Below, piece by piece: positions 42,478-55,164 of a stretch of 64,000 nt of DNA. Source of the DNA: Ignavibacteriota bacterium (lineage in GTDB: Bacteria; Bacteroidota; Ignavibacteria; UBA10030); the NCBI GenBank assembly GCA_963701295.1, contig OY969585.1:2784001-2848000 (forward strand). The letters run 5' to 3'. Within the stretch, counting starts at the first letter, position 1. The number at the start of each line of letters is the position of its first letter. The position numbers were made by a program, and so were the translations under genes. The notes beneath the pieces were generated by a model. The model made no database searches and was not told the origin of the DNA. It saw nothing but the letters and a program-made list of their open reading frames with translations.

Positions 42478-43152
42478 CTAAAATGATGTCGTATCTTCTT
42501 TAACAGAAATAATTTTCCCGTTTTTATAAGACTTAATAGTCGTGATAGATCGCTTGTTCTCAAAGTCGTTGTAGGTATCTACTTCTCTAAGTAGAATTAA
42601 TTTGCCATTTTTGAAACAATGAGTATAGACAGCACCACCAGTACTCCCTCCTGCATCATAAGATGTAATTGTATGTTTAACAGAATCAGGGTCTGGATCT
42701 CTTAACTCGCTAAAATCATCATTAAATACATACTTGCCTGTTTTTGGATTGTACAGCCAAACATAATTTTGTCCTCCAGCACTTCCGTCGTTATACTCTA
42801 TAAGAATATCATTATAACCATCAAAATTCATGTCCTTTGTCTCAACAGCTCTCGGATTAAAAATAAAATCATCATTTTTAGGCAAATGGAGCCTTTGTAA
42901 TATTTTATTACTGCCTTCTTGTCGCACCTCTATTCGGATTACCTTTGGACCAGGATCAACATTCTGTTCCCAATCACTTACGAATACCGAAAATTTATAT
43001 TGAGGTAATTGCTTCGCCACAGTTATCGTAAAGTCATATTGGTTATCAGAGACCTTAACAAACGGTACTTGCGCAAGATATTGGGCGACTACAATTTCAG
43101 TGAAAGAAAATAGAAACAAATGCAAAGCAACCACTTTATATAATATTTTCAT
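42478..43152 (-). CDS. Cassette 6: exported protein, XAC2610-related
   Basis: Signal peptide from ATG 43152; DMNFDGYND motif and YVWLYNPKTGKY. Confidence 0.65.
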   Translation of the reverse strand: MKILYKVVALHLFLFSFTEIVVAQYLAQVPFVKVSDNQYDFTITVAKQLPQYKFSVFVSDWEQNVDPGPKVIRIEVRQEGSNKILQRLHLPKNDDFIFNPRAVETKDMNFDGYNDILIEYNDGSAGGQNYVWLYNPKTGKYVFNDDFSELRDPDPDSVKHTITSYDAGGSTGGAVYTHCFKNGKLILLREVDTYNDFENKRSITTIKSYKNGKIISVKEDTTSF

Positions 43153-43187
43153 CTCGTCATATCCTTTGATTAGTACTGAGCAATGCC

Positions 43188-43339
43188 AGCTAACGGTCCT
43201 AAGCTGCGGCGTTGAAAAGCTGCAAGATGCACCCAGCAAAATGAGTTCACGCTGATAATTTTTAATTTTGCACCCGACCTCTGCACGCCATGCGTAACGT
43301 ACCCGGCTGGCAACCGTCAGCTTGAGCGCCTGGTTAGGC
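43188..43339 (-). repeat. attC (152 bp)
   Basis: AGCTAAC...GTTAGGC; shortened L'-R' spacer. Confidence 0.88.
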
Positions 43340-43694: not shown

Positions 43695-43982
43695 TATTCT
43701 TCCTTACGCTGCCTAACGGATTGCGGCTAAGCTGCCGCATGACCAACTTTAATTAACCACAAAACGAAACGAGTTCATGCTGATAACAAAATTAACATGT
43801 ACTCAACCAATGAAGTACTGAAAAGTTAATAATAAAAACGTCAAACCACCATCAGCCATGTAAATTGCTCCAACGCTCATCCGGTCAGCTTGAGCCGCTG
43901 GATATTACCAAAAAGGAATCTCCCGATTATGTACATTGATAATTCTCTAGGTCACCAACATCCACAATCTAAGGAGATTCCC

Positions 43983-44984
43983 ATGTATTACTCAGGTATC
44001 GATTTGCATTCTGATAATTGTTTTATCACCACTGTTGATGACACTGGTGCTGTCATCAAGCGACAACGTGTCGAGAATAACAATGAACGTGTTCTTGATT
44101 ACTTCCACTCTCTGCCCGGTCCTCATCACGCAGTCGTTGAGTCTACCACAGGATGGTACTGGCTCAACGATCTTCTCAGCGATCACGGCATCGAGCTTGT
44201 CCTTGCTCACGCCAAATATCTCAAAGCCATCAGTTATGCTAAAGTTAAAACAGATAAAGTCGATTCGCAAACTCTTGCTCTTCTCTTACGACAGGGACTC
44301 ATTCCACGGGCTCACAAAATCAGCCGAGAACTACGCGGCCTGCGCGATACCATGCGTATTCGTCTACGGCTCGTTCAGCAACGAACTGCCAGTCTTCTGC
44401 GTCTCTACAGTATTCAGACCAAATTTAACGGCTCTGTTCCGGATCCGTATCGTTTTCAACTTGCTGTCTTGCAACATACCAGAGACACTTTTACTGCTCA
44501 GATCCTCTCGCTGGAAAAATCTCTCCATCCTGTGCTGATTCCCAACGACGATATTCAACGGCTCTTGCACATTCCAGGTATCGGCAAGCTCACCGCATTC
44601 ACGGTGTATCTTGAAATCGACGGCATTGAACGATTCGACTCCGATAAAAAGTTTGTCTCTTACTGCCGACTCGTCCCTGCTGCCGATAACTCCAATCGCT
44701 CTGTGCACCATCGCTCCAGCAAAGACGGCAATAAGTATCTCAAAATCGCCTTCTCCGATGCCGCTGTTCATGCTATTCAGTACTATCCGGAATACAAACG
44801 CTTATTCCAGAAATTAGCTCGTCGCTCCAATGAGGCGACTGCGCGAACCGTCGTTGCCAAAGAACTTGCGAAGATTGTTTACTATGTCTTAAAAAACAAA
44901 ACAATATATAAAGGTCTCAAAGGTCAGCCGATCAGCCGGCATAAATCTCAGCAGTGGCCGCGCCTCTCAAGCCCGCTTTCCTAA
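43983..44984 (+). CDS. IS110-family DEDD recombinase/transposase
   Basis: GIDLH, VEST, KTDKVDS (DEDD), IPGIG, DNS serine loop, GNKYLK; ATG 43983 with AAGGAG RBS. Confidence 0.95.
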   Translation: MYYSGIDLHSDNCFITTVDDTGAVIKRQRVENNNERVLDYFHSLPGPHHAVVESTTGWYWLNDLLSDHGIELVLAHAKYLKAISYAKVKTDKVDSQTLALLLRQGLIPRAHKISRELRGLRDTMRIRLRLVQQRTASLLRLYSIQTKFNGSVPDPYRFQLAVLQHTRDTFTAQILSLEKSLHPVLIPNDDIQRLLHIPGIGKLTAFTVYLEIDGIERFDSDKKFVSYCRLVPAADNSNRSVHHRSSKDGNKYLKIAFSDAAVHAIQYYPEYKRLFQKLARRSNEATARTVVAKELAKIVYYVLKNKTIYKGLKGQPISRHKSQQWPRLSSPLS

Positions 44985-45240
44985 CTGATCCCGACTGCGT
45001 CGGGATCGTTCGCTGGATTGGGAAGAGAGTGCGCTGTGCCGTGGTAATATCTGGAACATCTCGCTCGACGAGATACGCTTTCACCATCGTTTCTTCAATG
45101 AGTGAATGTAAATCCGTAAACTGGTTTGGACGGCATTGCTCTGGTAATCGCCTGTCTATTCGATAGAGAACGCGGCATCGGCACGGATTCGGTCGTCCTT
45201 AATGTTAAAGAACTCTGCATTCCGATTGCGCGGAACGCAT
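44961..45240 (+). ncRNA. Predicted bridge RNA / seekRNA
   Basis: Guides CCTAAC (44980-85) and CGCTGG (45011-16) match the target; TGGTAATATC (45042-51) and TAAACTGG (45117-24) match the donor junction; each pair lies in a stem-closed loop. RNA ends approximate. Confidence 0.85.
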
Positions 45241-45294
45241 CGGGAGTATATTATTTACTTGACTCTTTCCTTTTTAAACTGGTTAGGCAGCGCT

Positions 45295-45699
45295 TTATTT
45301 CTTATCGTTCTTTGAATCTAATTTTTTCATCTCGAAACCTCTAACGATGACATACGCAATGAGAGCAACCAGAAAAAATATAAGGAGCATCCACGCAATA
45401 CTCTGCAATGAATCGATAATAGATTTGTACACCTCTATAATCCATCGGTCAGAAGTAAGCTGAAGAATTCTGCCTTCTTTGTCCGATGTAATGTACTTTT
45501 CGAGATCCCATAATCTCACTCCGCCGGAAATGCCAACAACAAATATTGCAAAGAGGATGTACCGTCGCCAAGTGGGAGCCAGATCCTCGCTGACAAGTCG
45601 GCTAAGAATTTTTGTAATGGGTCGTGCGAAGAGGAATGCAACCAAAGTTGACATCGCCAATGCAATAACGAAGGTTACAATTAACAATGTGACAAACAT
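45295..45699 (-). CDS. Cassette 4: 3-TM membrane protein
   Basis: Hydrophobic ORF with GGAGG RBS between attC sites. Confidence 0.8.
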   Translation of the reverse strand: MFVTLLIVTFVIALAMSTLVAFLFARPITKILSRLVSEDLAPTWRRYILFAIFVVGISGGVRLWDLEKYITSDKEGRILQLTSDRWIIEVYKSIIDSLQSIAWMLLIFFLVALIAYVIVRGFEMKKLDSKNDKK

Positions 45700-54108: not shown

Positions 54109-55164
54109 TCAGCATACGCTCCGATGATAATAATCTAAATTTAATTCCAGATTTATTTTATTCACTTCATTGTACAGTTGCTCGGGTTGTAAATGAGCAT
54201 AGAGCTCAGTCGTTTGCGCCGATGAGGCATGGCCTAATAATTTAGAAACTGAGTATAAAGGAACAGCAGCCTTTACAAGAGCCGTCGCAAATGAATGGCG
54301 GAGGCTATGAAGGTGAAGATTATCGTTAAGCCCGGCACGTCTGACATATCTCTTAAATTTCTGTGATACTGTTCCTTCTTTTAATTTACTCCCTTTTTGA
54401 TCATAGAAAACAGTTTCACATTCAAATCTTACAATTTGTTTTCTTTCTTTTAGCAATCTCCACAATTCCTCATTTATGGGGACGACACGGTTTCTTCTCG
54501 TTTTTGTAGTGAAAGAATCTGTATTTCTTACGAGGATCACTTTGGCATTAAAATCTACGTCACTCCACTGTAATGAAAGAAGCTCCCCCAATCTGAGGCC
54601 AGATAATATAGCCGTAAGGACTAAATCACGGAAATCAGTATCCCTGACTGCAAAAAGGAATGTTCTAAATTCACTTTCAGTGAAGTATGCAGGCACAATC
54701 TCACTTACTTTCGGTTTGGTGACTTTTCTAAAAGGATTATGTTCAAGAAAAGACCACTGCACAGCTTTCTCAAAGGCTGATGCAAGGGATATATAGTATT
54801 TCCTCGTGCTCCATTCTGAGGCTTCCACTTTTTTCACACTCAGGAAGTGTTCAATCTCCCGAATACCGATTGATTGCAGTGGTTTATCTCCCTCCACACG
54901 AATCAACTCCCTAAATGCAGTCTGATATGTGGTGTATGTTTTCTTTGTCAAAACACCTGATGCATATTCGAAGTATTGCTTTACAAAATCCGAAAGAATA
55001 ATTCTTTTAAGGTTTTGTTTCTTCTGGTGTTCTTCAACTTGGAATTGCAAAAGAAAAGCGAACGCTTTAGATTTCTTCTTGCACTTTGTCGAAACCTTAT
55101 TTCTCTTTCCGGTTTCATCATGAGAGAAGACATAATACACGCCACCAATTTTTGACAGGAACAT
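54109..55164 (-). CDS. Phage-type tyrosine integrase (not IntI)
   Basis: SGLRLGEL, K, HSLRHSFAT, LLGH, Y catalytic set; N-terminal arm-binding-like region; no IntI-specific insertion. Confidence 0.92.
   Translation of the reverse strand: MFLSKIGGVYYVFSHDETGKRNKVSTKCKKKSKAFAFLLQFQVEEHQKKQNLKRIILSDFVKQYFEYASGVLTKKTYTTYQTAFRELIRVEGDKPLQSIGIREIEHFLSVKKVEASEWSTRKYYISLASAFEKAVQWSFLEHNPFRKVTKPKVSEIVPAYFTESEFRTFLFAVRDTDFRDLVLTAILSGLRLGELLSLQWSDVDFNAKVILVRNTDSFTTKTRRNRVVPINEELWRLLKERKQIVRFECETVFYDQKGSKLKEGTVSQKFKRYVRRAGLNDNLHLHSLRHSFATALVKAAVPLYSVSKLLGHASSAQTTELYAHLQPEQLYNEVNKINLELNLDYYHRSVC

Follow-up and report, generated by a model that had tools for sequence, protein, structure and literature searches.

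A predicted RNA-guided IS110-superfamily element at the R'' box of integron attC sites in Ignavibacteriota

RNA-guided targeting of integron attC sites was shown in 2024 (PMC11187229). The IS1111 elements have sub-terminal inverted repeats, usually 11 to 13 bp long (7 to 17 bp in PMC11208160), which are set inside terminal extensions of 7 (or 6) nt on the left and 3 nt on the right (PMC11187229). ISKpn4, ISPst6, and ISPa25 insert after CTTGAR (Table 1 in PMC13604230), and the ISPa21 copy examined in this study was also inserted after CTTGAR, with 13-bp repeats set 7/3. In IS621, cleavage falls after the core (PMC11208158). The element described here is an intact IS110-superfamily member located at G|TT of the attC R'' box, and the evidence presented below makes it very probable that it moves by bridge-RNA-guided recombination via a predicted two-loop RNA.

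The window, which is the whole 64,000-nucleotide stretch of DNA that was analyzed, contains an IS110-superfamily element of 1,381 bp (bounds, about 43902 to 45282) that splits an integron attC. An earlier note on this DNA had placed the element at 43898 to 45288, with a 333-amino-acid recombinase. The element is located there, but that span takes in flanking sequence; the open reading frame at 43983 to 44984 (plus strand; TAA stop at 44982 to 44984) does encode 333 amino acids. The recombinase scored over the cut-off for PF01548 and PF02371, and its score with NF033542 was 169.8 bits (cut-off, 140). It has two hallmarks of the IS110 superfamily, a RuvC-like DEDD domain and a Tnp domain with a serine aligned to the catalytic one. 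The DEDD residues D7, E53, D91, and D94, plus S237, were kept in 119 to 121 of 121 aligned proteins. S237 aligned to S241 of IS621 (PDB alignment), and the residue that follows it is asparagine, giving SN where SG is usual. The only solved relatives of the recombinase were IS621 and ISCro4, both of which were remote (E = 6.5e-8 and 1.2e-5). Nine copies of the element with 100% identity were found in the genome, along with two relatives at 89% amino acid identity. Because nine copies are identical, the element was evidently active recently. Judged from its sequence, it is an intact and recently multiplying member of the superfamily with a putatively active recombinase.

Relatives were drawn from 77 genome loci and 80 metagenome loci, which with three of the genome's own copies made 160 loci; those fetched were the best 80 of 95 and the best 80 of 166 confirmed stretches. 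A profile search of cluster representatives yielded 264 further proteins at E <= 1e-30, but as sequences lacking a genomic setting they did not enter these comparisons. The hosts of the 77 genome loci were nearly all Ignavibacteriota or Bacteroidota, with one Gemmatimonadota, consistent with the proposal in the earlier note that the target is an attC family of the FCB lineage. From the 160 loci, anchored parsing recovered 123 right ends and between 140 and 146 left ends or guides. The right ends were anchored on TTGAY, and a misparsed left end and a misparsed guide were discarded.

The left end of the window element (43902 to 43982; 81 nt) consists of an 8-nt extension, the left copy of the sub-terminal inverted repeat (AAAAAGGAA, 43910 to 43918), and a region with the ribosome-binding site AAGGAG (near 43971 to 43976). 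The right end (45259 to 45282) includes a -35-like TTGACT (45259 to 45264), the right copy of the repeat (TTCCTTTTT, 45267 to 45275), and a 7-nt extension finishing in the core GG. The repeat is 9 bp in the window element and 8 to 14 bp in 108 of 112 relatives, and the repeats started 8 nt (left) and 7 nt (right) inside the ends in 98 of 112 loci. The noncoding region downstream of the recombinase gene is ∼300 nt, compared to 81 nt upstream. A promoter scan within the linear element did no better than chance (3 found versus 2.7 expected).

The window has co-oriented genes with long attC-like repeats between them (RYYYAAC...GTTRRRY, with L-box pairing). An nhmmer profile built from eight of these repeats gave 177 attC-like matches in the 3.64-Mb genome (G000), mostly in arrays. 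A bona fide IntI is encoded beside one array (G000:3566721-3567662; TIGR02249, 453 bits versus a cut-off of 265), and the array of the window is without an adjacent IntI. A tyrosine recombinase near this array (54109 to 55164, minus strand) had a score of 44 bits, far under the IntI cut-off. Between 36224 and 49010 the attC sites are long, about 160 to 230 bp, and many of the cassettes have genes for large proteins that carry the motif QNYPNPFNP at the C terminus, which we take to be a type IX secretion sorting domain. One cassette (42478 to 43239, minus strand) encodes an XAC2610-related domain (NF047539, 73.6 bits versus a cut-off of 35). At the start of the array, the gene for a ThsB-like TIR protein (PF08937; 49064 to 50058, minus strand) overlaps that for a likely membrane protein of 131 amino acids, and it is possible that the two are a defense cassette.

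The interrupted attC belongs with repeat families D1 and D5 of the window. Its boxes are named here after the established attC anatomy. The left part (43711 to 43901) lies on the plus strand, which is the attC bottom strand, and contains the R' box GCCTAAC (43711 to 43717), the L' box (about 43722 to 43733), the L'' box (about 43887 to 43897), the spacer, and the G of the R'' GTT. The displaced rest of R'', TTAGGC (45283 to 45288), adjoins the 3' end of the cassette gene at 45295 to 45699 (minus strand). All 11 copies in the genome were located in arrays, on the attC bottom strand and in the same orientation, directly after the G of the R'' GTT. This bears out the earlier assertion that the element splits attC, and the insertions at unrelated sites that were expected if its reading was wrong did not appear among the 11 copies.

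The copies at G000:C1 236008 and 2475716 lie in distant arrays, and their flanks are identical over 45 nt on the left and 30 nt on the right. This suggests duplication of an occupied cassette, or its movement along with the element, and the two may share one insertion event. Six remnants consisting of the last 55 to 85 nt of the right end were detected on the same contig, near 1810066, 2382048, and 2385001 (minus strand) and near 3157460, 3160813, and 3333530 (plus strand). At least four of these are fused straight onto the left part of attC, in place of L''. Five of the six terminate in ATGG or GTGG and are therefore likely to be derived from relatives of the present copy.

The four guide stretches and the perfect 9-bp hairpin described in the earlier note were recovered, each at the coordinates that it gave, and the TG that it had reported after both reverse-strand guides is present. 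The right-target guide CCTAAC (44980 to 44985) overlaps the stop codon and would pair with top-strand GTTAGG. The left-target guide CGCTGG (45011 to 45016) is the last part of a 9-nt slot (45008 to 45016). Between the two target guides lies the hairpin (44987 to 45007), which is free in sequence and is also present in relatives. The right-donor guide TGGTAATATC (45042 to 45051), in which the conserved part is about AATATC, and the left-donor guide TAAACTGG (45117 to 45124) follow. The two relatives in the genome, at G000:C1 2410024 and 2397733 (minus strand), have the right-target guide CCTCAC, with one mismatch to attC, and the one at 2397733 is a mosaic in which the right end, GTGG, no longer fits its own donor guide.

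One explanation is that these matches arose by chance or are left over from duplication of the ends, with the protein alone recognizing attC. The target guides are only 6 nt long, and when the 299-nt 3' region was dinucleotide-shuffled 20,000 times, a right-target match of the observed length was reached in 699 shuffles (3.5%) and such a left-target match in 2,439 (12%). The right-donor match (10 nt) was reached in 9 shuffles and the left-donor match (8 nt) in 80, and all four at once in none of the 20,000. Thus, the set of guides is not weak evidence, although each 6-mer target match alone is.

Comparison of guides with flanks across homologous copies, a check that the earlier note had recommended, showed that all four slots track their partners (0 of 20,000 permutations each), although significance is overstated because the permutations ignore relatedness. 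The strongest covariation was that of the left-donor guide, with 427 of 450 matches versus a permutation mean of 319 (90 nonredundant elements); at position -3 the guide equaled the element end in 89 of 90, with four bases represented. Matches numbered 434 of 510 versus a mean of 343 for the left-target guide (85 elements), 543 of 672 versus 513 for the right-target guide (84 elements), and 596 of 747 versus 560 for the right-donor guide (83 elements). The signals for the two right-hand guides are small inside the clade because their sequences barely vary. The right flank began with TTA in 120 of 123 loci.

Proteobacterial sister elements, with 30 to 35% identity, kept the RNA scaffold at unrelated, non-attC targets. 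Among seven nonredundant sister elements, the right-target slot matched its own target at 46 of 63 positions versus a mean of 33 (13 of 20,000 permutations) and the left-target slot at 41 of 56 versus 36 (534 of 20,000), which amounts to natural retargeting at the same slots. This comparison used 11 of 14 close plasmid loci, the others (L162, L184, and L185) being without a scaffold recognizable by eye, and parsing slips were kept in the counts (L189 missed, L193 with a misparsed left junction, and L196 with a slot one base off). With slots fixed in a covarying scaffold and guides that change with their partners both among clade members and among the retargeted sister elements, it is extremely unlikely that the matches are chance or relics.

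Target choice within the genome was also considered. YGCTGG was present at 8 of 9 occupied sites, whereas only 31 of the 114 in-array sites that stand empty had it (Fisher P = 4e-4; 7 of 8 and P = 1.2e-3 once the duplicated flank was dropped), an excess that is predicted by the left-target guide CGCTGG; GCCTGG was present at 53 of the 114 empty sites. Several observations count against a perfect fit: five of the nine copies are at TTGCTGG, with one mismatch to the guide, five perfect 11-mer target sites stand empty, and the right-target guide of both relatives is mismatched. Such tolerance of mismatched targets might indicate that a folded attC hairpin is required besides the guides, as for group IIC-attC introns, so that the system would not be freely programmable. 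All 11 copies are in attC even though 41 of 76 empty GCTGGTTA[GT] matches fall outside attC, and the insertion site and the TTGT/T site of the introns are one base apart (PMC7923331). An L''-like TTGA was at a fixed distance in 108 of 145 loci, versus 1 to 14 when the position was slid. However, this TTGA was lacking at the expected distance in the other 37 relatives, and the sister elements hit targets unrelated to attC. With the fuller match [GC]CTGGTTA[GT]G, 71 of 93 empty sites were attC, as were all five of the perfect 11-mer target sites that stand empty in the genome; sequence alone therefore nearly suffices, and selection against insertion into genes is also at work. Thus, it seems unlikely that the hairpin is required, and guide pairing is the preferred account of site choice.

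The predicted RNA was evaluated in an alignment of 46 sequences, the window and 45 of 75 eligible relatives. Its target-binding arm (44960 to 45034) has 5' strands that overlap the last recombinase codons and consists of an outer stem (44960 to 44968 with 45025 to 45034) and an inner CCC/GGG pairing (44972 to 44974 with 45020 to 45022). In the outer stem, two-sided changes occurred at 6 of 9 pairs and 99.4% of cells were paired; there were 130 cells with two-sided changes versus 36 in shuffles (0 of 500 shuffles). This 9-bp stem is a conserved, covarying part of the predicted RNA. The stem GTGCCGT/ACGGCAT (45036 to 45042 with 45130 to 45136), proposed earlier to close the donor loop, was not supported in that register, which paired in only 68.5% of cells; an alternative register paired in 92.4%, with nonsignificant covariation (40 of 500). 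The single-sequence fold of the guide region was unremarkable (z = -1.66) and paired parts of three guides, and an Rfam search gave no matches. Metatranscriptome contigs from three RNA runs were from relatives only, and contigs cannot show RNA ends.

The C-terminal W-P-R...S-P tail of the recombinase (44955 to 44984) is conserved and coincides with the RNA stem, and it may therefore be conserved for the RNA rather than for the protein. Conserved GATA, GGCA, and AAAGAAC motifs were observed downstream of the left-donor guide (45160 to 45215). It is possible that they represent a third hairpin, the RNA 3' end, or a protein site.

Whether the donor loop takes part in recombination bears on a further alternative, in which a short target loop of a seekRNA chooses the site and the protein reads the ends via the inverted repeats, so that the donor loop would be dispensable or regulatory. 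An 82-nt seekRNA of ISEc11 with target matches only was sufficient and outdid the long form (PMC11187229); in the elements studied here, the inverted repeats at fixed distances noted above could serve such reading, and right-donor matching decayed after about 6 nt. However, the left-donor slot covaried tightest of the four, and both loops kept one geometry, with 11 nt and a U on one strand and 9 nt and WUU on the other (84, 84, and 86 of 90 elements). These findings imply that donor pairing is under selection. An RNA that guides only target choice is therefore rather improbable, and a bridge RNA with functional target and donor loops is favored.

The earlier note had taken CTGG as the core. 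CTGG is indeed common to both junctions of the window copy, but left and right junctions shared a suffix of 1, 2, 3, and 4 nt in 22, 42, 40, and 8 of 112 loci, respectively, and the two relatives in the genome have TTAG on the left and ATGG or GTGG on the right. Because junctions share 1 to 4 nt, CTGG is not the core. From these junctions and by analogy with IS621, the core is assigned as 2 nt, GG or TG, with copies at 43900 to 43901 (left) and 45281 to 45282 (right) and a putative crossover directly after it. Only the last G of the core was invariant, and the parsing itself required that G. Position -2 flips among copies with identical guide sets (L027/L039 versus L032/L033; L129/L138 versus L135), as expected from a 2-nt core that is able to be heteroduplex. 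With a donor guide that has G, junctions were T on the left and G on the right 16 times, T on both sides 11 times, and G on the left and T on the right once, a bias that would fit top-strand-led resolution (compare bioRxiv 10.1101/2025.10.25.684509).

A handshake reading of the TG following the guides is not supported, as TG is nearly fixed while the DNA bases that it faces vary. The triplet after the right-target guide did not track donor positions -2 to -4 (TGG of the donor loop served as the anchor). No back-joint was found in eight sequencing runs, and the 183 loci gave no match to a circle junction, but contigs drop rare forms, so that absence proves nothing. Eight viral-contig matches to the circle-junction pattern were attributed to chance; the flanking motifs of the element were absent from them.

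In the mechanism that we propose, circle formation would put TTGACT of the right end 17 nt from GATATT, creating a junction promoter. The RNA, extending from about 44957 to 45136 or beyond, would bind the recombinase; loop 1 would pair with the two strands of attC, and loop 2 with those of the circle junction. The DEDD and Ser237 sites would then cut the top strands directly after the 2-nt core (GG or TG, the last G alone being invariant) and exchange strands, and core mismatches would mostly be resolved from the top strand. Insertion would swap GTTAGGC for GATATTA opposite R'. This replacement would be expected to disable attC for IntI, so that two cassettes would be locked together until the element leaves.

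The lineage of the recombinase was considered because the earlier note had called the element IS1111-type and linked it with the known attC-targeting IS1111 elements. Like ISKpn4, ISPst6, ISPa25, and ISPa21, as these are described in PMC11187229, the window element targets attC, has sub-terminal inverted repeats, and has a 3' noncoding RNA region in which the top-strand guide is 5' of the bottom-strand guide. It is also antisense to the cassettes and near the attC 5' end, as the known members are (PMC3001079). It might thus be merely another member of that group. The layout and guide order agree with the IS1111 label, but the lineage does not: the recombinase is 22% identical to that of ISPa21, and a joint clade with ISPa21 was rejected (AU test, P = 1.15e-6, in a tree of 13 rows with long branches and without ISKpn4). 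In a 27-row tree, the clade of the element (99/100) was sister to ISGsu4-type proteins (97/95) and outside the clade of ISEc11, IS5075, ISKpn2, and ISPa21 (100/98; these were the only four IS1111 references in the tree).

The recombinase is 31% identical to a protein annotated as ISGsu4 family, and its N-terminal GIDLH motif was found only in ISGsu4 and ISMahy12 within the ISfinder-derived source file of PMC11187229. Its motif is RLVP----SN, versus GL-P----S(t)G in the IS1111 family. Furthermore, insertion at G|TT of R'' is 7 nt further 3' than the CTTGAR| insertion of the known members (PMC13604230), and the ends have a 9-bp repeat set 8/7 rather than 13 bp set 7/3 as in ISPa21, which does not fit the proposed kinship. 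Hosts in Ignavibacteriota and Bacteroidota and a readable donor loop are further differences. Membership in the known attC-targeting group is extremely unlikely once all of these are weighed, and the lineage is likely to have reached attC independently of the known elements. In the literature that was searched, no paper was found that deals with the clade of the element or with any IS110-type element at R'', although subscription papers or supplements may include the clade computationally; a search by the names ISGsu4, ISGsu5, ISMahy12, ISShfr7, and ISShwo5 gave nothing on that group.

A broader and quite tentative interpretation, which we consider doubtful as a whole, is that the ISGsu4-like clade might represent a third bridge-recombinase architecture, with a symmetric two-loop RNA over the last recombinase codons, repeats 15 nt apart across the junction, SN or SA for SG, and one fixed core G, and hence might provide an unusually unconstrained programmable recombinase. 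The Ignavibacteriota branch might then be parasitic on integrons throughout its lineage, disabling attC at R'', fusing cassettes, and leaving hybrid sites that reshape arrays. Apart from this interpretation, the compact recombinase, the mapping of four guides, and the loosely constrained core make the system ready for a reprogramming assay. It is a candidate editing tool, and the principle established in 2024 is unchanged.

Of the systems with known structures, IS621 and ISCro4 (PMC11208160, PMC11208158, and PMC13626964) resemble the window element in their DEDD residues and Tnp-domain serine, in having four guides spread over two loops, in a 2-nt core whose first base is the less constrained one, and in a predicted junction promoter. 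They differ in that the predicted RNA of the window element is at the 3' end and overlaps the gene, the guide order is reversed, the core is GG or TG rather than CT, SN replaces SG, and covarying handshake bases were not found. The nearest named lineage is the group of ISGsu4, ISGsu5, ISMahy12, ISShfr7, and ISShwo5 (ISfinder); the proteobacterial members of the ISGsu4 group that were fetched share the RNA scaffold and the 7-nt right extension but have unrelated target sites. Group IIC-attC introns (PMC3001079 and PMC7923331) resemble the element in RNA-guided insertion at R'' of the attC bottom strand, antisense to the cassettes, but they are retroelements, insert at TTGT/T one base 3' of the site of the element, and need the hairpin (PMC7923331). 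The lineage described here departs in end geometry and motif from the tested IS1111 and IS621 types, and it is probably one more case in which an RNA-guided mobile element came to attC independently, here at GTT of R'', besides the attC-targeting IS1111 elements and the group IIC-attC introns.
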